In this document: in pieces, positions 2,430 to 22,193 of the stretch
How the letters are laid out: every line of letters starts with the position of its first letter
How positions within the stretch are numbered: position 1 is the stretch's first letter
Virus record (IMG/VR): IMGVR_UViG_3300028780_000001
DNA length: 64,000 bases
Origin: a virus
Direction: 5' to 3' (one strand)
Made by a program: the position numbers and the translations under genes
The notes under the pieces: generated by a model
Database searches by the model: none
What the model saw: only the letters and a program-made list of their open reading frames with translations
What the model was told of the DNA's origin: nothing

Positions 2430-2813
2430 ATGGCCCGCTTTCACTGCCGTTGCCGTCACTGTCGCACGCGTCGGGTGCTGAAGCAACACCCAACCGGGTA
2501 CACGGCTGTTCCGCAGTGCCGCGTGTGTGGAAAACGCTTCTATACGTTCAAAAACAAGCTGGTCGGTCCTATATTCGTCGTCGACAAATGGATGCAGCGC
2601 CGTACGAAGAAGAATCGCGCAATGGGCTGTATGTGCATCGGCTATAAATGGGAAGGTAACATGACCGGAGCCATGCATCGTCGCGGCTCGAAGCAATGCT
2701 GGTTCAGGGCGAACGGCGATCAACGCGTGTACGGTGACTCGGATTATTTTATGGACCCTGACATAGAAAGGATGGATTATGAAAGCAACACAGAAGTTTT
2801 ACGCGCGGCCTGA
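2430..2813 (+). CDS. zinc-ribbon protein
   Basis: CRCRHC...CRVC cysteine pairs at N-terminus. Confidence 0.5.
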   Translation: MARFHCRCRHCRTRRVLKQHPTGYTAVPQCRVCGKRFYTFKNKLVGPIFVVDKWMQRRTKKNRAMGCMCIGYKWEGNMTGAMHRRGSKQCWFRANGDQRVYGDSDYFMDPDIERMDYESNTEVLRAA

Positions 2814-3009
2814 TAAAGCGCCGACGACCGAAGTCGTACCCGTACTCGCGAATCACGCGGTCGACGGCGATCGCGGCGTGAACCTTCGCTTTATCGCCGT
2901 CGGTGAAAGCGCAGCATCCGGCGAAATGCATGTTCGCATGTCGAGCTTCGAAGCGCTGTCGCTCGCGGCTGAAATCGTGCTGAAGGTTGCGCGAGCGAAA
3001 GTGTTCTAA
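2779..3009 (+). CDS. hypothetical protein
   Basis: GAAAGGA RBS 7 nt upstream of ATG. Confidence 0.5.
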   Translation: MKATQKFYARPDKAPTTEVVPVLANHAVDGDRGVNLRFIAVGESAASGEMHVRMSSFEALSLAAEIVLKVARAKVF

Positions 3010-3389
3010 TGCAACGCGCCTTTACGCTAGATGGCTGGGGTAATGGCCCGCTCTTCGCACCTGTCGTGAAGCAAAGACCGCTCGCACGCCCGAAAGGTCT
3101 TCAGGGTACGGTTAGAAGGCGTCAGGAGAGGGGGCGTACGCCTCGCTGGGCCGATCGGAAGGCAATGGCGGCAATCTACCGTCAAGCGCGCCTGTTGACC
3201 CGTCTAACGGGCGAATTATGGGTCGTTGACCATATCGTTCCACTGTTCGGAAAGTACAACGGCGCCCATATCGTGAACGGCTTGCATTGGGAAGGGAACA
3301 TGCGGGTCGTTCATTGGCGTGAAAACGCACTCAAGGGGAATTTTGAATGGCCCGATATGCCGGTTAAACAGTTAGAGTTTTTACTCTAA
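3009..3389 (+). CDS. HNH endonuclease
   Basis: VDHIVPL...NGLHWEGNMRVVHWRENALKGN (His-Asn-His core). Confidence 0.8.
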   Translation: MQRAFTLDGWGNGPLFAPVVKQRPLARPKGLQGTVRRRQERGRTPRWADRKAMAAIYRQARLLTRLTGELWVVDHIVPLFGKYNGAHIVNGLHWEGNMRVVHWRENALKGNFEWPDMPVKQLEFLL

Positions 3390-3480
3390 TTTGGGCGATT
3401 GACGTCGAGAAAGGTCGAGAATACTATTCGTCTAACGGTTCGCAACGTGCGTTCCGATCCACAGAAAGGAATAGAAAGAA
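3372..3480 (+). promoter_or_regulatory. early promoter-leader cassette
   Basis: TTAGAG-N6-CTCTAA 3372-3389 (covers HNH stop); -35 TTGACG 3399-3404; TCGA at 3405/3415; -10 TACTAT 3422-3427; AGAAAGGAATAGAAA 3463-3477. Confidence 0.65.
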
Positions 3481-4170: not shown

Positions 4171-4380
4171 ATGCCAGAAAGAAAACTTTTGTCGATCTTT
4201 GTCGAGTGGCGCGATGAAAAGGGCGATCGCGATTCGGTCACGTACTACGCCGAAACGCTTGGGGATTCACGCGCCAGGCTTCGTGCTGCGCAACGGGTCG
4301 AGATTTGTCGATCGTCTCAGTTCGTGATCACCGCGTATCGTTTCGAACATAGCGACGGTTCGGTAACCAACGCTATTTAG
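4171..4380 (+). CDS. hypothetical protein
   Basis: ATG ORF; stop TAG lies inside cassette inverted repeat. Confidence 0.5.
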   Translation: MPERKLLSIFVEWRDEKGDRDSVTYYAETLGDSRARLRAAQRVEICRSSQFVITAYRFEHSDGSVTNAI

Positions 4381-4480
4381 AGTCTTTCCTCTAATTTTCA
4401 GGTTCCGTTCGTCGAGATTGTTCGATAAGATTCTTTCACGGTCGACGAACGGCCGGAACCTAGAAAGGAATAGAAAGATC
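4377..4480 (+). promoter_or_regulatory. early promoter-leader cassette
   Basis: TTAGAG 4377-4382/CTCTAA 4389-4394; TCGA at 4412/4422/4442; -10 TAAGAT 4426-4431; AGAAAGGAATAGAAA 4462-4476. Confidence 0.6.
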
Positions 4481-4732
4481 ATGGACAAGATTCGGATTAC
4501 GCCGCTCGACACGAAAAATCTTGACGAAATTACCTTGGTCGATCCACTAATTACCGCGTTTCGCAACGCGATGCGCTTCGGAAACTCCACGGTTATCGCG
4601 ATGATCAAGGGTTCTCCGTACATTTTCTTCGTCGAAAAATCTTCTCTTGGGCTCGACAAGTTTTACGCCCGACTGCTGAATGAGAACGGCGAAATCGTTG
4701 CAATCTGCGACTTCGACAGTTTCGATATGTAA
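4481..4732 (+). CDS. hypothetical protein
   Basis: ATG right after cassette leader. Confidence 0.6.
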   Translation: MDKIRITPLDTKNLDEITLVDPLITAFRNAMRFGNSTVIAMIKGSPYIFFVEKSSLGLDKFYARLLNENGEIVAICDFDSFDM

Positions 4733-5779: not shown

Positions 5780-6003
5780 AGTCCGATCTTAAAGAAGGCG
5801 ACACACCGCCGGAAGACGTTGGCGAGATTTACGCCGACATGCACCTTCAGTTCGAGGCGCGGTATCCGACGGCGTCGCACCGCAAGATCGCGACAATGGT
5901 CGCCGTTCACTATATCGAAGAGTCGTTGCGCGTTACGCGCGAACGTGACTTGCTTCAGCTTGCGTTCGATAACCTGAAGGAGGCGGCGAAGTCGGTCGAT
6001 TAG
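5776..6003 (+). CDS. hypothetical protein
   Basis: ATGA overlap with upstream stop; stop TAG inside cassette repeat. Confidence 0.5.
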   Translation: MKSDLKEGDTPPEDVGEIYADMHLQFEARYPTASHRKIATMVAVHYIEESLRVTRERDLLQLAFDNLKEAAKSVD

Positions 6004-6089
6004 AGTGTTTCCTCTATTGCGCCGGTCGACGCTTGTCGATAGTATTCGTTCACGGTCGCGTGACCGGCGCAACGCAGAAAGGAACAGAA
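6000..6089 (+). promoter_or_regulatory. early promoter-leader cassette (short form)
   Basis: TTAGAG 6000-6005/CTCTAT 6012-6017; -35 TTGCGC 6017-6022; TCGA 6026/6036; -10 TAGTAT 6040-6045; AGAAAGGAACAGAA 6076-6089. Confidence 0.6.
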
Positions 6090-8699: not shown

Positions 8700-8951
8700 A
8701 TGTATTGGGATTCAGAAGGGGAATGTTTCCGCTACAAGATCACGGAAATTAACTGGTCGGACATCGCCAAGGCGTACGCGCGCTGCAATGCTATCGTCAT
8801 ATCGAACATCGTCGGCTGGACCCAGTACGGTTTTCGGGATATTTCGACCGGCGCGACGATCATGGAGACGCGCATAGGTGTAACCTCCTATCGTGCGCTG
8901 TACGTTGCCATGGTCAAATATGTCGCAAGCAAACAAGGTGCGTCGAAATGA
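8700..8951 (+). CDS. hypothetical protein
   Basis: Internal ATG 8700, 2 nt after upstream stop. Confidence 0.5.
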   Translation: MYWDSEGECFRYKITEINWSDIAKAYARCNAIVISNIVGWTQYGFRDISTGATIMETRIGVTSYRALYVAMVKYVASKQGASK

Positions 8952-10446: not shown

Positions 10447-10742
10447 GCGCAACGTATGTGTATTTAGTATCCGCGTACACGTCGCACGAGTCCTGCAATG
10501 TCATCGCATGCTTCTCGCTTGAGCGCGATGCCAAGGCGTTCGCGGATCGCTGCAGAAAGTATGATGAGAAGAAGCCGCATGTTCCTTATCTCAACGAACC
10601 AGACGAAAACTGGACGCGTTGGGAAAAGGCGAACGGGCGCTGGTACGATCGGCATCCGGCGAAGCTGCATTCAGAGCCAGACGCTTATATCGTTGAGGGT
10701 ATCAGGTTGCGACCGGCCGTCATGAAAAAGGTCCCGAAATGA
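10443..10742 (+). CDS. hypothetical protein
   Basis: ATGA overlap. Confidence 0.55.
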   Translation: MSATYVYLVSAYTSHESCNVIACFSLERDAKAFADRCRKYDEKKPHVPYLNEPDENWTRWEKANGRWYDRHPAKLHSEPDAYIVEGIRLRPAVMKKVPK

Positions 10743-11056
10743 ACCTTGATAACGTTTTGGTCGTATCGTTCGAAACGCTCGTCGAGTCTGTACGGCATAT
10801 CTCTATGGACCCGGAGAAGATCAGGATTCTGATTCTTATATCGAAGACAGATAAGCCTCACTACGTCACAAATTGGGACGGAAAGGTTTTGAAAGTTAAC
10901 CCGCCTGTCAGGATGACATGTCCCTTAGACTCTGTTGAGTTTCCATGCAATAACAAGATCGCCACCGAGTTCGATCCGTTGTCGGCGTTGTCGGCGTGCT
11001 TTCGTTGCCGCGCTGTCGTTTGTGCCGTCGACAAAGGTCGAATCTTTTCGGATTAG
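10739..11056 (+). CDS. hypothetical protein
   Basis: ATGA overlap; stop TAG inside cassette repeat. Confidence 0.55.
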   Translation: MNLDNVLVVSFETLVESVRHISMDPEKIRILILISKTDKPHYVTNWDGKVLKVNPPVRMTCPLDSVEFPCNNKIATEFDPLSALSACFRCRAVVCAVDKGRIFSD

Positions 11057-11115
11057 AGTGTTTCCTCTAGGCATGTTAGCGATACACTAGACGCCTAAAC
11101 CAGAAAGGAATCAGA
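11053..11115 (+). promoter_or_regulatory. truncated cassette (repeat + leader, no TCGA boxes)
   Basis: TTAGAG 11053-11058/CTCTAG 11065-11070; TACACT 11083-11088; AGAAAGGAATCAGA before ATG 11116. Confidence 0.45.
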
Positions 11116-13039: not shown

Positions 13040-13193
13040 CCGATCCCGTCACGGAAGATACGGAGCCGTACCGCTCCCGCGATTTCTTTACATGCGGTTT
13101 ATGCGGCGGCTCTGGCTGGGTGCCTCGCGACCCTGACATCGGAACCGATCAGGAATGTTTCGTTTGCGACGGGAAGGGAGAAGTTACAGATTA
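13035..13193 (+). CDS. DnaJ-type CxxCxGxG zinc-finger miniprotein (52 aa, below cutoff)
   Basis: CGLCGGSG and CFVCDGKG read by hand; ATGA overlap; stop TAG inside cassette repeat. Confidence 0.5.
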
Positions 13194-13289
13194 GAGGCTT
13201 CACTCTAATTTAGTTAGTGACAAGCGTCGACCGCATTCGATATGATTCGTTTGCGGTCGACGTGATCGCGATACCAGAAAGAGATAGAA
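13190..13289 (+). promoter_or_regulatory. early promoter-leader cassette
   Basis: TTAGAG 13190-13195/CTCTAA 13202-13207; -35 TGACAA 13217-13222; TCGA 13226/13236/13256; -10 TATGAT 13240-13245; AGAAAGAGATAGAA before ATG 13290. Confidence 0.65.
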
Positions 13290-14336: not shown

Positions 14337-14355
14337 TTTATACGCATCGACTTTG
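14337..14355 (+). promoter_or_regulatory. degenerate copy of TTTATGCGCATAAACTTTG element
   Basis: TTTATACGCATCGACTTTG. Confidence 0.3.
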
Positions 14356-14441
14356 TCGAGAATGGTCTGTACTTCAGCGTATCATTCAATGGTAGAGTGC
14401 CTTAAGGCGTTAATCGCACGCGTTCCCGGAGGAGGTTGATT

Positions 14442-14657
14442 GTGACTGTCGTGACGAAGAAGTTTCCCGAAGAGTGGATGACGCTAGACGGTCGCCGGAT
14501 CGCCGTGTCTGACATGGACGAGGATCACGTACGCGCCGTACTGAACATGATCCTGAAGCGTCGCCGGTTACGCGCACGCTTGCGTCTGGAACTGAAAGCT
14601 CTTGATGAATGGGCCGAAGAATGCATCAACGACGATGCGAAGTGGGGTAAGTCTTGA
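14442..14657 (+). CDS. hypothetical protein
   Basis: GGAGGAGG 14428-14435, GTG 14442 at 6-nt spacing (track start TTG 14436 abuts RBS). Confidence 0.5.
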   Translation: MTVVTKKFPEEWMTLDGRRIAVSDMDEDHVRAVLNMILKRRRLRARLRLELKALDEWAEECINDDAKWGKS

Positions 14658-14851
14658 ACCATCCGTTAGAAGACCTAAGCGTCCATCTGTAAAAGGCCTA
14701 CGTCGATATCGCCGAGGCGTTCAATGCGACGTTTCCGCCGATCGGCGATGCTCATGTAATATCGAAGGTGCGGTCGCTCATGCAGGAGGCTTCAGACAAG
14801 CTCGAACATGCTAAGGGCCTGGTTACGAGTGAGATATGCCGATCGCGTTAG
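14654..14851 (+). pseudogene. ORF interrupted by in-frame TAA (14690-14692)
   Basis: TTGA overlap start; protein-like reading LNHPLEDLSVHL*KAYVDIAEAFNATFPPIGDAHVISKVRSLMQEASDKLEHAKGL...; stop TAG in cassette repeat. Confidence 0.25.
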
Positions 14852-14950
14852 AGCCTTTCCTCTAATTCTCCGCTAGACGCATGTCGACACTTTTCGATAT
14901 TATTCGCTTGCGGTCGACGAAGACCGGGCCTAGAAAGGAACAGAAAGATC
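14848..14950 (+). promoter_or_regulatory. early promoter-leader cassette
   Basis: TTAGAG 14848-14853/CTCTAA 14860-14865; TCGA 14884/14894/14914; -10 TATTAT 14898-14903; AGAAAGGAACAGAAA 14932-14946. Confidence 0.65.
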
Positions 14951-15229
14951 ATGGCGACCATCCAAATCCGCGCGCAAGACCTGAAGATTGGCGACAGGCT
15001 GGTTTTCTCCGCACACAAGACCGTCGAGCTAACCGACGTCGTCAAGGCGCCCACTTCCGGCCGTGTGTACGTCTCCTGGATGGAATCGAACGAGACGCGT
15101 ACCGGCATGATCGAGCACGATTACCACTTCGATTCGTACCTGTCGTTCGCAGCGATTGAAGTCGTCGAGGGCTTGCGCGAGATTGACGCCGACGGCTTCG
15201 CGACGTATCACCTTCCGTTCAAGCTGTAA
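14951..15229 (+). CDS. hypothetical protein
   Basis: ATG after leader. Confidence 0.6.
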   Translation: MATIQIRAQDLKIGDRLVFSAHKTVELTDVVKAPTSGRVYVSWMESNETRTGMIEHDYHFDSYLSFAAIEVVEGLREIDADGFATYHLPFKL

Positions 15230-15256
15230 AATCAAGCGAGCCCGGCGCGAGTCGGG

Positions 15257-15272
15257 TTTATGCGTATAAACT
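15257..15272 (+). promoter_or_regulatory. TTTATGCGTATAAACT element
   Basis: Near-palindrome after GCCCG..CGGGT hairpin; 27 nt upstream of ATG 15299. Confidence 0.45.
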
Positions 15273-15298
15273 CTTCGCTTAACAGAAAGGAATAGAAC

Positions 15299-15703
15299 AT
15301 GAAAACCCTGATTATCGAGCCGTTCAAGCAAATGACCTTCCGCATGCTCCCGTTCGATCGCGTATGGGACTTGGAAATGATCGGCGGTATTCTCGAACTG
15401 ATCGACAGCGGCGTCGGATATTGGGCGGTCGACGAGGCGCCGGAGCCGCACCAATTGCCGTTGCTCTTCGTGCTCACCGAACAAGAGCCATTGAGTGCTG
15501 AAGGTCCGCAAACGCACCGCGTCGACCTGGCGACTGTCGCATGCGGTATCAATCGCATTCTGTCGGGCTCGTGCGAAGTGAACGTCGACGCGATCGGCAA
15601 CATCGCGAAGTTCGTCGCGACAAACGACCTATCGCACGTCGATATCGAAGACATGGACCTGATCGTCCAGGCTGGCGTGTACGGCAAGATCGTGTTCGGG
15701 TGA
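15299..15703 (+). CDS. hypothetical protein
   Basis: AGAAAGGAATAGAAC leader then ATG. Confidence 0.6.
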   Translation: MKTLIIEPFKQMTFRMLPFDRVWDLEMIGGILELIDSGVGYWAVDEAPEPHQLPLLFVLTEQEPLSAEGPQTHRVDLATVACGINRILSGSCEVNVDAIGNIAKFVATNDLSHVDIEDMDLIVQAGVYGKIVFG

Positions 15704-15831
15704 AAATACGCCACCTGAAGAAACGACCGCGACCCGTCGAGCGAGCATGGATTTACGGCGGTCGTTTCACCGTACCAAAAGAGACGGTCGACGCGATCAC
15801 CGCTTGGCTTAAGTCTTTCATTCGCATGTAA
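15700..15831 (+). CDS. small basic protein (43 aa)
   Basis: GTGA overlap; below ORF cutoff as trimmed. Confidence 0.3.
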   Translation: MKIRHLKKRPRPVERAWIYGGRFTVPKETVDAITAWLKSFIRM

Positions 15832-15839
15832 AACCGCGC

Positions 15840-15861
15840 GACTTTATGCGCATAAACTTTG
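15840..15861 (+). promoter_or_regulatory. GACTTTATGCGCATAAACTTTG element
   Basis: Perfect 14-bp palindrome TTTATGCGCATAAA 15843-15856; GAGG RBS and ATG 15873 follow. Confidence 0.5.
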
Positions 15862-15872
15862 AGGTAAGCATC

Positions 15873-16127
15873 ATGGCACGAAAGAAAATGAATGCGGCCG
15901 AACGTATCGCTGCGCTGGTTGAGCGGGCAAAGTTAAATGGTCGTGCGCGTATCACGCTGAAGCGCAACCACAGGCTAGGGTTTAGCCGCGAGGTAGTCGA
16001 GTGCTACCTGTCGGGTACCGTCTACCGAAACGGGCAGTACGTCGGCCGGCGACTGTTTTTCAGTCTTAACGGAAATAGAATCTCCCGTTCTAAGCTGCTG
16101 GGCATCATGATGGATTGGCTTGAATGA
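15873..16127 (+). CDS. hypothetical protein
   Basis: GAGGTAAG RBS then ATG 15873. Confidence 0.55.
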   Translation: MARKKMNAAERIAALVERAKLNGRARITLKRNHRLGFSREVVECYLSGTVYRNGQYVGRRLFFSLNGNRISRSKLLGIMMDWLE

Positions 16128-16537
16128 GCCTCGTCCACGTAAGCGGATACGCGCACGTCAATCCGGTCGACGTCGCCAAGGTCGAGGGGTTTCCTCTGAC
16201 GCTGTCGATCGTCGTCACGATGCGCAATGGCGACGCGCTCACGCGGTACGTCGACGAGAAGGACATCGCCGAACTCATGGAGCCTTCTACGGATGACCCG
16301 GCGACCTGGTCTGAAAGGCAGTTTAATTTGTGGCTTACGATCCACCATCCGAGTATGGGAGACTACACATCAGAGGCGGGCCGAAGATACCAAATGTATA
16401 CGAACAAGGGTCGCCGGATGACCGTGTTCGATTGGGAACTTGAAGCGGTGAACGACCATAAGCCTTGCGTCGACCGCGAGAGCGCGTTTGCCCTTAAGCT
16501 GTCTTCGTACGTGGCGCTTTTTAATCGGGCCAGTTAG
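16124..16537 (+). CDS. hypothetical protein
   Basis: ATGA overlap. Confidence 0.55.
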   Translation: MSLVHVSGYAHVNPVDVAKVEGFPLTLSIVVTMRNGDALTRYVDEKDIAELMEPSTDDPATWSERQFNLWLTIHHPSMGDYTSEAGRRYQMYTNKGRRMTVFDWELEAVNDHKPCVDRESAFALKLSSYVALFNRAS

Positions 16538-16744
16538 AATCATCGACATGCATATTCTTCGAATCCTTTTCGCGCTTGTGTCGCTCCCGTGCGTGGGAAT
16601 GGCTTGGCGCCAACCGCTGATCGATCGACAAAAGTCGACGCGTCGCAATACCCGGCCGGGTCAACTTGATTATGGCTAGGTGATCGCGGTTCGATCGTCA
16701 CGCACGACGGTTGACCGCCGACGACAATCTGACGCCGATAGAAG

Positions 16745-16799
16745 AATCGCCCGCGCTGGACGTAGACCGTTAATCTACTGGCGCGGGCGATTTGCTTTT
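16745..16799 (+). terminator. intrinsic terminator
   Basis: AATCGCCCGCGC 16745-16756 pairs GCGCGGGCGATT 16781-16792, then TGCTTTT. Confidence 0.6.
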
Positions 16800-16905
16800 A
16801 GAGGGATCGCTCTAATTTTTCTGTTTGCGACGTCGAGAAACGTCGATATGATTCGGTCATGGGTTGCAGCACGGAGCCGCGACCGGATAGAAAGGAATAG
16901 AAATC
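16798..16905 (+). promoter_or_regulatory. early promoter-leader cassette
   Basis: TTAGAG 16798-16803/CTCTAA 16810-16815; -35 TTTGCG 16824-16829; TCGA 16833/16843; -10 TATGAT 16847-16852; AGAAAGGAATAGAAA 16889-16903. Confidence 0.65.
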
Positions 16906-17130
16906 ATGTCACAAGCCCAATACCTCGTTGCAGATAAAGCGGTAGAGGCGTATGACGCTTTCGTGTTCACTTCGGTTGGGCGCGAGTTCAATCAGGGCCG
17001 TGCCGACGTTCTGGCTTGGGTTGCTGCGGACGAATGTAAGAAAGCTGCGCGCGACAAGGCGCTGAACCATATGACTCAAATGTATTATCACGAGCAGGCG
17101 AAAAACTTCGTCGCGATCATTGCGGATTAA
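16906..17130 (+). CDS. hypothetical protein
   Basis: ATG after leader. Confidence 0.6.
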   Translation: MSQAQYLVADKAVEAYDAFVFTSVGREFNQGRADVLAWVAADECKKAARDKALNHMTQMYYHEQAKNFVAIIAD

Positions 17131-17220
17131 AGATCACGGCGCGTCGCGGGTTTCCAGTACCGATCAGGCGACGCGCAAAGAGCGCTGCGTTCGAGCGTGT
17201 GAATCCGACGGCACAAAGAG

Positions 17221-17255
17221 AAAGGCCCGAAGCGCTTATGACGCGACGGGCTTTT
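17221..17255. terminator. bidirectional terminator at convergent junction
   Basis: AAAGGCCCG...CGGGCTTTT: A-run 5' and T-run 3' of a GC stem. Confidence 0.5.
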
Positions 17256-17272
17256 GTGCTTTCAGACTCGCG

Positions 17273-17294
17273 CAAAGTTTATGCGCATAAAGTC
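17273..17294 (-). promoter_or_regulatory. GACTTTATGCGCATAAACTTTG element (inverted copy)
   Basis: 22/22 identical to 15840-15861 but on minus strand, immediately after stop of 17300-17827. Confidence 0.5.
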
Positions 17295-17299
17295 GACGG

Positions 17300-17827
17300 T
17301 TATCGGGGCTTCGTCGGCCAGGTCGAGTTCACGCTACCATGCATCGTGTCCATCGCGTTACCGGCTTGCGAACCGCCCACCTTGAACGCTTGACGCTGTT
17401 CGGTGAGTGCCGCGCCCGAGTTCGCCTTGGCCTTGATTTCTGCCTTCGCCTCGTCCATTACCGACGGGCTTTTGGTCGTGCGCAACTCGCCTTCAGGTTC
17501 GGTCTTCACGCCTTCGCCCACGATTGCGTGGTCGACGACCGGAACCTTCAATTCGACATGCTGTTCGCCAAACGATTCGCCCGTGTGCTCGACTTCGACG
17601 TTGATCACGCCTTGCGCCGGTTCGGTTGACGTGATGGTTGCGCCGATCACTTGCGGCTCGACAGCGGTCACAGGTTCTGTAGCGCCGATAGGCTTCACTT
17701 CAAGCGGATCGTTACCCGGCGTTGCGATCGACGCAACTGCAGCTTGAGCTTCGTTTGCAGCGGTCAATGCTGCCTGGACTGCTTGCGACTCGGTTACATC
17801 GGCTTCGGTTGATTGGACGTCGGACAT
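17300..17827 (-). CDS. strongly acidic protein
   Basis: About 20 D/E vs 3 K/R in first ~112 aa (hand count). Confidence 0.55.
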   Translation of the reverse strand: MSDVQSTEADVTESQAVQAALTAANEAQAAVASIATPGNDPLEVKPIGATEPVTAVEPQVIGATITSTEPAQGVINVEVEHTGESFGEQHVELKVPVVDHAIVGEGVKTEPEGELRTTKSPSVMDEAKAEIKAKANSGAALTEQRQAFKVGGSQAGNAMDTMHGSVNSTWPTKPR

Positions 17828-18837: not shown

Positions 18838-18871
18838 GGCCGCGAGGATCGTCGAGATTCGATAGGATTCG

Positions 18872-18898
18872 ATTATACCGACATTGGGCGCTTGTCAA
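18872..18898 (-). promoter_or_regulatory. sigma70-consensus hexamers, 15-nt spacer
   Basis: Minus strand TTGACA (18898-18893) and TATAAT (18877-18872) upstream of ATG 18837. Confidence 0.45.
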
Positions 18899-19133
18899 GC
18901 TAAAAAGTTCGATACGGCTATGCAGCGGTAGAAAACTGACGATTGCATTACTGCAAAACAATATAGCCTTTCAGTTTGCCGCAAGTGTTTGATTTGATAG
19001 CAAATTACGTTCCTTACACAGTTGACATAATGAATTCTATCGATCTTTCAGTGTGCAGGCGTATTGAAAGAATATGACAAGTGTCGCTTGTCACTTTACG
19101 GTCTAGTTGGGATATCCAGCACTCTTGACTCTC

Positions 19134-19312
19134 TCAACTATCCGTTCAACTTTCGAAAGTCCAAGCCAGCAAACGGATTGCGGTTGATAGTTGTATATAT
19201 ATATAATTGTATGATCTATATATATATATATATACATTACACACCCATATGCTTTGGGCGGTATTTTTAACTTCCACTCCAACTAACTTGCCAACTATCA
19301 AAGTCACAACTA
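19134..19312. repeat. AT-rich origin-like region: TA tracts and CAACTA iteron-like repeats
   Basis: (TA)6 19194-19205, (TA)9 19217-19234; YCAACTW at 19134, 19146, 19279, 19291, 19306; inverted GTTGATAGTTG 19183-19193. Confidence 0.5.
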
Positions 19313-19551
19313 TTCGCGGCAATGTCCAGTATATTCAACAACCTGCGCGGACATCCTCAAGTATTTCCTTAGCTATTCACTCGACGTCACGCCTTTGCCA
19401 TGGCTTCGCGGCTCTCAGGTGTGACCTTCCGACGCCGGGCAGCAGACAGGGCGTTCCTATACCCATAGAAGCGACAGTGGAAGGTTCGCGCAGTGCTTCC
19501 AATGGAAAAGCCGCCCGAAGGCGACCTGACCACATACACGCCGCACATAGA

Positions 19552-21191: not shown

Positions 21192-22193
21192 CTACGCTCC
21201 GATTCTTTCAGACAGTAATCCTGTCATTTTCAATGTTTGTCGACCGTTCTCGAATGTCTTAGAGATTTCACGAAGCAAATCTCGACCGTGAATTTCTTCG
21301 ATTCCTATATCACTTCCCGTTAAGTACTTACCCTCGTTCATTACAACGGTGACGCCGGAAGTACTTATTACCGATTTACTATTCGGAGATTCGAGCCACC
21401 CCAAAAACACGTTACGGGTGAAAACTTCAGTCATTCCGCTGTCGATAAGATGCGGCCCATCGAAGTCGATTTCGTAACGGTCGGATTTATATAAACGCTT
21501 GATTCTCCGCTCCACGTCGGCGCATAGTCGACCATCTTCGAAATGAACAAGCGATCGAAGCGGCATAGATAATCCTTCGATCGCACCGAATTGAGAGGCT
21601 CTATTTGCCGGTTCGAAGTTAGTAATTCCAATCTTGAAATTTCCAGGACGAATAATCCCACCTTCACTCAGGAATTCACGAGAGTACAGGAACCCTGGAA
21701 TGTCTGGATTGAACCCTCCCGTACCGCGCTCCATATGGACGCATATCTCGTCAAGCCACCTATTTCTCCACGCAGCGTCGTACGCACTCATTGACCCCTT
21801 CTTAAATTCGTTCCGAGTCCTACACCCCTTAGCTTCCAACCTGCACGTTTCTAATGTCCATGTCGTACGGACCTTTTCCATATGAGCGCATATCTCGTCA
21901 AGCCAACCATTATTCCGCGCGGCTTGGTATATACCACTTGACCCCTTCTGAAATTCGTACCGCGTCCGATACCCCTTAGCTTCTGACTTGCACCTTTCGA
22001 AGGTCCACGCCGTACGGACCTTTTCCATATGAGCGCAGATTTCATCAATCCACCTATTTCGAAAAGCGGCTTGGTATGTACCACCTGACCCCTTCTGAAA
22101 TTCGTACCGCGTCCGATACTTCGCCGCTTCTGACTTGCACCTTTCGAAGGTCCATTTTGCCGGGAGACCCATCCCCTCAAATCCTCGCGTCAA
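21192..22193 (-). CDS. T5orf172/GIY-YIG-like homing-endonuclease-like protein with 3 N-terminal repeats
   Basis: C-terminal GFLYSREF...FKIGITNFEPANRASQF; three 49-aa WTFERCKSEA...ICAHMEKVRT repeats. Confidence 0.6.
   Translation of the reverse strand: MTRGFEGMGLPAKWTFERCKSEAAKYRTRYEFQKGSGGTYQAAFRNRWIDEICAHMEKVRTAWTFERCKSEAKGYRTRYEFQKGSSGIYQAARNNGWLDEICAHMEKVRTTWTLETCRLEAKGCRTRNEFKKGSMSAYDAAWRNRWLDEICVHMERGTGGFNPDIPGFLYSREFLSEGGIIRPGNFKIGITNFEPANRASQFGAIEGLSMPLRSLVHFEDGRLCADVERRIKRLYKSDRYEIDFDGPHLIDSGMTEVFTRNVFLGWLESPNSKSVISTSGVTVVMNEGKYLTGSDIGIEEIHGRDLLREISKTFENGRQTLKMTGLLSERIGA
21714..22154 (-). repeat. 3 x 147-bp in-frame tandem repeat
   Basis: Units 22154-22008, 22007-21861, 21860-21714; long identical nucleotide runs between units 1 and 2. 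Confidence 0.8.

Follow-up and report, generated by a model that had tools for sequence, protein, structure and literature searches.

Here we analysed a stretch of viral DNA of 64,000 nucleotides (IMG/VR virus record IMGVR_UViG_3300028780_000001; hereafter the window), in which small early genes run rightward up to position 17130 and genes from 17300 onward run leftward. Copies of one palindrome, TTTATGCGCATAAA, lie at the junction of the two blocks and in the three short intergenic gaps that close the early block; this 14-bp sequence is also the invariant core of parS, the centromere, of chromosome 2 of Burkholderia cenocepacia, gTTTATGCGCATAAAc. A preliminary description of the region had taken the palindromes for operators of a phage-specific middle promoter regulon. 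The copies are as follows, with chromosome-2-type sites denoted parS-c2.

14337 to 14355, plus strand: degenerate copy, TTTATaCGCATcgACTTTG, 16 of 19 positions
15256 to 15271, no strand assigned: parS-c2-type site G-TTTATGCGtATAAA-C, 15 of 16 positions, position 10 changed from C to T
15842 to 15857, no strand assigned: parS-c2-type site C-TTTATGCGCATAAA-C, core 14 of 14, 15 of the 16 positions of gTTTATGCGCATAAAc
17277 to 17292, no strand assigned: parS-c2-type site G-TTTATGCGCATAAA-G, core perfect, 15 of 16 positions of the 16-mer

Written as 16-mers, the three parS-c2-type sites of the window have the forms C-core-C, G-core-G and G-TTTATGCGTATAAA-C. The C-core-C site lies in a 41-nt gap, its core ending 16 nt before the ATG of the gene at 15873, and the G-core-G site lies at the convergent junction, 8 nt past the stop of the minus-strand gene 17300-17827 and just outside a bidirectional terminator. 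The site at 15256-15271, whose TTTAT doubles as the T-tract after a hairpin at 15240-15257, has homologous sites in two related genomes (L036 and L037) that are perfect at 16 of 16 positions. The degenerate copy is directly followed by a sigma-70-like promoter, TCGAGA-18-TATCAT, at 14356-14385.

The 22-mer from which the preliminary description started, GACTTTATGCGCATAAACTTTG, is present at 15840-15861 (+) and at 17273-17294 (-) with no mismatch (0 expected in shuffles), and the identity extends to 23 nt (15839-15861 versus 17273-17295). Matches to the perfect 14-bp palindrome with at most one mismatch were found at 15257, 15843 and 17278, that is, 3 against 0.01 expected in 64 kb, all inside 2.0 kb. 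The two further copies that had been listed as related fare differently, since the core at 15257 carries a single mismatch but the 14337 copy, judged on the core alone, has three and is at chance level (6 matches versus 2.5 expected). When its CTTTG flank is included, the latter agrees at 16 of 19 positions, and the window has 4 matches to the 19-mer at up to 3 mismatches where none is expected. Because these flanked matches exceed expectation, we regard the 14337 copy as real, probably a decayed site that is unlikely to bind well. Beyond the cores at 15257, 15843 and 17278 and this degenerate copy, no palindrome-like copies were found in the 64-kb window.

The centromere sequence of B. cenocepacia chromosome II, gTTTATGCGCATAAAc with 6 sites, was taken from a table in a review (PMC7022226, where Dubarry 2006 is the cited source) and then checked against genomes directly. 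The secondary replicons of Burkholderiales (Bsr) have centromeres in the form of a 16-bp palindrome whose 5' arm is T-rich and whose centre is CG, most of those tested tolerate substitution at positions 1 and 16, and chromosome-2 parS is bound by ParB, a dimeric helix-turn-helix (HTH) protein (PMC5450999). The palindrome of the window has the 16-bp form, the T-rich 5' arm and the central CG. Scanning 185,579 species genomes (one genome per species) with the 16-mer gave at least 120 loci. Among the matches listed, 78 of 120 loci belong to Burkholderia, Paraburkholderia or Trinickia, and 51 of these 78 have 3-5 exact 14-bp cores within 8 kb (host clusters: median span 1.2 kb, median gap 315 bp). 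Of the other 42 loci listed, 40 are single-copy, as expected by chance, and 2 are betaproteobacterial metagenome-assembled genomes (MAGs) with 4-5 sites, so that multi-site clusters among these matches occur only in the three genera and the two MAGs. In complete genomes, the sites are on the replicon titled "chromosome 2", with one exception titled chromosome 1 (L134). At the one host locus that was annotated, in B. pyrrocinia (L119), they flank parA (ParA ATPase) and parB (ParB_N and HTH_ParB domains). The 14-bp core is invariant in the host sites, with position 1 being G or C and position 16 being C or G, and the phage copies follow the same pattern; several copies in relatives match at 16 of 16 positions, including L036 6445, L037 9449, L037 10116 and L176 324. 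The parS of chromosome 1 (TGTTNCACGTGAAACA) was not found in the window.

By sequence, the window motif thus belongs robustly to the known c2-type parS family, and the restriction of its clusters to Burkholderia sensu lato agrees with the hosts of the phage's nearest isolated relatives, which infect Burkholderia. As a system, the locus departs from a centromere locus in one respect: no cognate parAB was found on the replicon, and in place of an adjoining replicon origin there is only an AT-rich candidate origin nearby.

Many Burkholderia genomes also have one isolated parS-c2 site at a distance from the main parAB cluster, surrounded by conserved AT-rich sequence (tttaagTTTATGCGCATAAAcgtttt) and, in complete genomes, about 1.0-1.2 Mb into chromosome 2 (L050, L060, L061, L066, L084, L106, L109, L117 and L123; in reverse orientation in L051, L053, L071, L076, L091 and L116).

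The preliminary description had proposed a search of related phage genomes, and this search revealed perfect 14-bp cores in six relatives. In total, 18 perfect cores were found in seven independently assembled genomes, with two in the window and 2-4 in each relative.

L036 (VapE 96% identical): cores at 4569, 4730, 6000 and 6445
L037 (VapE 71%): cores at 8765, 9449 and 10116
L176 (299-aa protein 63%): cores at 244 and 324
L189 (VapE 67%): cores at 2871 and 4770
L192 (retrieved via gene F, described below): cores at 10540 and 10826
L193 (retrieved via gene F): cores at 10542, 10889 and 13029

In alignments of homologous intergenic regions, the core stands out as an island of identity, with both the flanks and the neighbouring genes diverged; behind the invariant cores, VapE identity ranges from 67 to 96% (three relatives) and gene F identity from 38 to 76% (five relatives). 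All seven genomes have at least one copy at the convergent junction of the early and replication operons, beside the terminator, with varying flank orientation. The core at 2871 in L189 is intragenic, located in a GIY-YIG homing-endonuclease-like open reading frame (ORF, 2762-3292) that is inserted in the spacer between VapE and the 299-aa gene. Overall, the phage clusters comprise 2-4 sites over 0.1-2.5 kb near the AT-rich candidate origin, a geometry that resembles the centromere clusters of hosts and plasmids.

A binder encoded by the phage itself was not found. In the 64-kb window, tblastn and phmmer searches with host ParA and ParB detected no phage ParA or ParB, Pfam assigned no HTH, ribbon-helix-helix (RHH), ParA or ParB domain to about 60 ORFs of the early and replication regions, and no lysogeny genes were found. 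With neither ParA nor ParB found among its own genes, the phage would borrow those of the host; the predicted binder is the resident host ParB of chromosome 2 (ParB-c2), because the motif is identical to the host parS. Thus, at a probability of about 0.75, we propose that the palindromes are copies of the parS centromere of the host secondary chromosome and predicted sites for host ParB-c2, which would amount to centromere mimicry. From the observed sequence identity, host-restricted motif, conservation in seven genomes and lack of a detected phage ParAB, we infer both the binding and its consequences.

ParB dimers are clamps dependent on cytidine triphosphate (CTP) that load at parS, spread onto adjacent DNA and link it to nucleoid-bound ParA. 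Phage DNA entering a Burkholderia-type cell would be bound by the resident ParB of chromosome 2 at three, possibly four, sites. The most likely use would be to couple phage genomes to the host ParABS-c2 machinery, by which phage DNA, whether replicating or dormant, would be positioned or partitioned near the putative origin, with ParB titration being an unavoidable side effect as phage DNA multiplies. In B. cenocepacia, an extra parS on a plasmid of 10-15 copies displaces the cognate origin, slows growth and yields anucleate cells (PMC4948915). Since even this disturbs the cell, a replicating phage with 3-4 sites per genome would have to interact strongly with ParABS-c2. Among the possible consequences, which are not mutually exclusive, we would rank hitch-hiking on ParABS-c2 above ParB titration, and titration above ParB acting as a repressor or roadblock. 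Hitch-hiking is favoured because a centromere-like cluster is conserved near the candidate origin at 18838-19551 and because the junction location is sheltered from transcription. A further, tentative and on balance doubtful proposal is that a phage without detected lysogeny or partition genes is segregated or positioned by host ParABS-c2 like an extra replicon, giving a carrier state that is inherited or else an organised site of replication, with protein F as a possible adaptor.

The genes and elements that surround the sites are the following.

15873 to 16127, plus strand: gene C, 84 aa, basic
17223 to 17262, no strand assigned: bidirectional intrinsic terminator, a strong hairpin with T-rich tails on both strands (minimum free energy -36 kcal/mol; z -3.4 on the plus and -3.0 on the minus strand)
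17300 to 17827, minus strand: gene F, 175 aa, acidic, predicted to be mostly disordered, with conserved N- and C-terminal segments (..QAGNAMDTMHG.VN.TWPPK.R)
18838 to 19551, no strand assigned: candidate replication origin or DNA-unwinding element, 714 bp, non-coding and AT-rich, with (TA)9-type tracts and several inverted repeats

The terminator closes both the early (+) and the replication-side (-) operons, and the junction parS abuts it. The candidate origin, which has the 299-aa gene on one side and the VapE primase-helicase gene on the other, is 1.5-4 kb away from the parS cluster. L036 and L037 have a gap of about this length at the matching position, and (TA)n tracts are present in these two genomes, in L192 (around 8585) and in L193 (around 8694).

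Gene F was found in all seven site-bearing genomes and is absent from all five site-less relatives. This pairing held in an advance test, in which two divergent full-length genomes were retrieved solely by their F homologues (38% and 46% identity) and both had the sites. Gene F may be functionally tied to the sites or may be just a marker of the clade. As a binder of the sites, protein F was rejected, given its predicted disorder and a structure model with a predicted local distance difference test (pLDDT) score of 49. One more contig with the junction site, P0130 (JGI, 1138 bp), contains a frameshifted gene-F homologue that reads through this site as ..VDFMRINF (GTCGACTTTATGCGCATAAACTTT). Gene C is directly downstream of a site here, in L037 and in L193. 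Its structure model is confident, with an alpha-beta4-alpha arrangement, no HTH and no significant structural match, and gene C was rejected as an autoregulator, having no homologues beyond itself, no sequence match in PDB and no structural match.

The early region also contains cassette repeats at 3372-3394, 4377-4399, 6000-6022, 11053-11075, 13191-13213, 14848-14870 and 16798-16820, each with about 100 nt that follow. Each cassette comprises, in this order, a hairpin (TTAGAGn7CTCTAATTT), GTCGAC..TTCGATAtgATTCG..GGTCGAC and a ribosome-binding block common to the cassettes (AGAAAGGAAyAGAAA). The GTCGAC..GGTCGAC part carries sigma-70-like -35 and -10 elements, for instance at 13217-13246, 14874-14903 and 16825-16852. 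The cassettes are presumably modules of a terminator and an early promoter, and thus the cassette promoters from which the preliminary description had set the palindromes apart.

The preliminary description had rested its promoter proposal on a TAAACT hexamer, resembling a -10 element without a -35, and on distances of 27-90 nt to downstream genes. The hexamer does follow the core without a -35, and the extended -10 (TGn) is absent as well; it results from the C at position 16 of parS being followed by T. The distances are roughly right for the genes at 14442 (about 86 nt) and 15299 (26 nt), but wrong for that at 15873, where the gap is 11 nt measured from the 22-mer and 16 nt measured from the core. 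What lacks support is the activator-dependent middle-class regulon itself, since a sigma-70 scan detects no promoter at the palindromes, only those of the cassettes and one at 14356-14385. Moreover, the copy at 17278 and the junction copies in the six relatives lie between convergent stops and the bidirectional terminator with no gene downstream, and the copy at 2871 in L189 lies inside an ORF with no gene to transcribe from it. The operator part of that proposal holds in so far as the palindrome suits a dimeric HTH protein, but an early phage regulator is unlikely as its partner when the sequence is identical to host chromosome-2 parS.

Other explanations of the sites remain to be weighed against centromere mimicry. 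If the parS identity were coincidental, the palindromes could be operators for a dimeric regulator, encoded by the phage, of phage-specific middle genes; they are clustered upstream of three window genes, gene F co-occurs with them, and a regulator could hide among the small phage proteins, most of which lack recognisable domains. We consider this very unlikely, because chance would hardly produce agreement with the host-group centromere at 14 of 14 positions (at all 16 in several copies), the ORFs searched contain no HTH, RHH or ParB domain, gene F is acidic and predicted to be disordered, and gene C has no match to a DNA-binding fold. A role of host ParB itself as a phage transcription factor deserves more weight, though it too is unlikely: the gene-proximal sites, which overlap TAAACT, would be ParB-repressed promoters or roadblocks that set the expression of the final early genes, much as with KorB of plasmid RK2. 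In five phages, six copies are separated from a start codon by 16-18 nt that include a Shine-Dalgarno sequence, and the T that completes TAAACT follows the C of position 16 in 11 of 13 phage sites versus 43 of 233 host sites, a difference inflated by common descent of the copies. Closeness to start codons is, however, unavoidable because the intergenic gaps are only 41-69 nt, and the sites have neither a -35 nor an extended -10 nor a promoter detected by the scan. In addition, junction copies face terminators in either orientation, one copy is intragenic, and the genes downstream of the sites differ between phages. A minor regulatory role, with gene-proximal copies being also ParB-controlled -10 elements, is possible.

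Somewhat less improbable than either, yet still rather unlikely, is that the sites serve as decoys, with three or four on each of hundreds of phage genome copies soaking up ParB-c2 and derailing chromosome-2 segregation, possibly along with replication control and division, while the phage DNA itself is not moved. The disturbance of B. cenocepacia already by an extra parS on a 10-15-copy plasmid (PMC4948915) and the lack of a phage ParA agree with such a role, but titration requires neither the conserved junction position nor closeness to a putative origin, and the gain from disturbed segregation within one lytic cycle is not evident. At the level of RNA, the palindrome could act in mRNA as a terminator, processing site or translational operator: some copies adjoin terminator hairpins, TTTAT forms the U-tract after the hairpin at 15240-15257, and a weak antisense terminator-like stem can form from the core centre and the CCGCGC flank. 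Yet folding of the gene-proximal copies is no better than that of shuffles (z 0.3 and -0.8), on which ground we rejected the hairpin; the invariant cores give no covariation evidence, and they are kept in both orientations relative to transcription, leaving an RNA element extremely improbable. We give equally little credence to origin elements resembling DnaA boxes. Each half of the palindrome, TTATGCGCA, is one mismatch from a relaxed DnaA box, TTATNCACA, the sites are near the AT-rich candidate origin, and Ori-finder is reported in a figure legend to call some host parS sites DnaA boxes (PMC4948915); neither the palindromic arrangement nor an exact 14-mer would be needed for such boxes, however, and the sites lie 1.5-4 kb from the AT-rich region, outside it.

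Several observations weigh against centromere mimicry. In the stretches examined, L043 and L044 (VapE about 52%) have neither this palindrome nor another recurring one, and the same was found for the phages BcepF1, BCSR52 and Maja in 25 kb around the VapE gene and for Burkholderia phage Bm1, which is unrelated to the window, in its first 50 kb. Since the examined stretches of BcepF1, BCSR52, Maja and Bm1 lack the sites, these are not a general requirement. PB1/BcepF1-like phages are moreover regarded as virulent, and a lytic phage's need for a centromere is not obvious. The phage copies also have flanks that are absent from host sites, with CT or CTTTG after the core on one side and CCGCGC(G/A) on the other. 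The latter lies 2-4 nt from the core in many copies and creates a second TGCGCR 13 nt from the palindrome centre. The flanked copies are listed here.

Window: 15843 and 17278
L036: 4569 and 6000
L037: 8765 and 9449
L176: 244
L189: 4770
L192: 10826
L193: 10889 and 13029

Gene-proximal copies, in turn, keep a constant distance of 16-18 nt (or 28 nt) to the start codon; together with the phage-only flanks, this spacing suggests a further or different constraint. The C-to-T arm change of the 15257 site is absent among 233 host sites. Finally, the window covers 64 kb of a genome of about 73.5 kb, and a ParAB pair in the remaining 9 kb, though unlikely, would count against borrowing from the host.

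Several known systems resemble the phage sites. KorB of the IncP plasmid RK2 is a ParB-family protein that binds OB palindromes of the TTTA...TAAA type upstream of many genes, serving both as a centromere binder and as a repressor. The window sites are of a similar palindrome type, but the gene for KorB shares a replicon with the operators, which differ in sequence. Compared with Bsr centromeres of Burkholderia chromosome 2, the phage sites have the same 14-bp core (16/16 in several copies), the T-rich arm, the central CG, variable positions 1 and 16, and an arrangement of several sites in 1-2 kb. They differ in not being beside a parAB operon or RepA-type origin, in having no cognate parAB that we could find, in their own flanks (CT/CTTTG and CCGCGC), and in number, with 2-4 perfect cores per locus versus 3-5 for the majority of host clusters (the published number for B. 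cenocepacia is 6). The genomes of phages P1, with its parS, and N15, with four dispersed inverted-repeat sites, likewise contain several short palindromic sites for ParB or SopB, some of them among lytic or replication genes (PMC7205306). P1 and N15, however, are temperate plasmid prophages with their own ParAB or SopAB, while the window has the centromere sequence of the host itself and no par or lysogeny genes that we could find. Also comparable are parS decoy plasmids in B. cenocepacia (Du et al. 2016, PMC4948915), in which a multicopy replicon lacking parAB supplies additional parS copies that titrate ParB and upset the cognate chromosome; these plasmids are laboratory constructs, whereas the window would be a natural, conserved viral version.

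Our literature search found no report of a phage carrying a host-chromosome parS without its own ParB, although a missing match is no proof of novelty. The ParABS centromere of a replicon is regarded as its private signal, and this specificity keeps the several Burkholderia chromosomes apart. If our proposal is right, a virus that copies a host centromere signal without the proteins would use or sabotage host chromosome segregation, giving a natural case of viral centromere mimicry, for which a fluorescent ParB-c2 already exists as a tool (PMC4948915). The parS-c2 motif also serves as a sequence-based host predictor for this uncultured phage clade.

The window itself is from a distant PB1/BcepF1-like myovirus. 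Its DNA polymerase III alpha subunit is 56% identical to that of Pseudomonas phage SN (PB1-like), and it also encodes, among further genes typical of the group, a VapE primase-helicase, a RepB-type primase and a DUF3383 sheath protein. No close DNA relatives were found among deposited phages. By VapE, the nearest isolated phages are BcepF1, Maja and BCSR52, and since all are Burkholderia phages, the host genus Burkholderia is independently indicated. The F and C proteins of the window are recorded on 47-48 contigs (clusters P0121 and P0134), the longest being 73,515 bp; therefore, the phage recurs in public data with a genome of about 73.5 kb. A search for related loci with the 299-aa protein found none, and scans of IMG/VR with the 16-mer and the 19-mer gave single chance matches or none. 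We rejected L003 as a relative, with the motif there being inside a gene of an AT-rich, unrelated phage, and also rejected the VapE homologues P0005, P0006 and P0007 as site-bearing phages, these being located in satellite-like elements that contain an integrase and lack the motif.

VapE proteins 60-65% identical to that of the window also occur in integrase-bearing, satellite-like islands (L041, L038, L039 and L191), none of which has the parS motif. Of these, L041 (Paraburkholderia sp. EB58, JBNDMQ010000010.1, 215109-236737) encodes an integrase, AlpA, VapE and a Terminase_3 protein, and L038 an integrase and a PyocinActivator protein; the islands may be satellites of the phage group to which the window belongs. 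Further along the window, a 333-aa protein (ORF 21192-22193, minus strand), for which Pfam gives only a weak match to DUF7667, contains three tandem repeats of 147 nt (49 aa) at 21730-22170 that are 69-80% identical.

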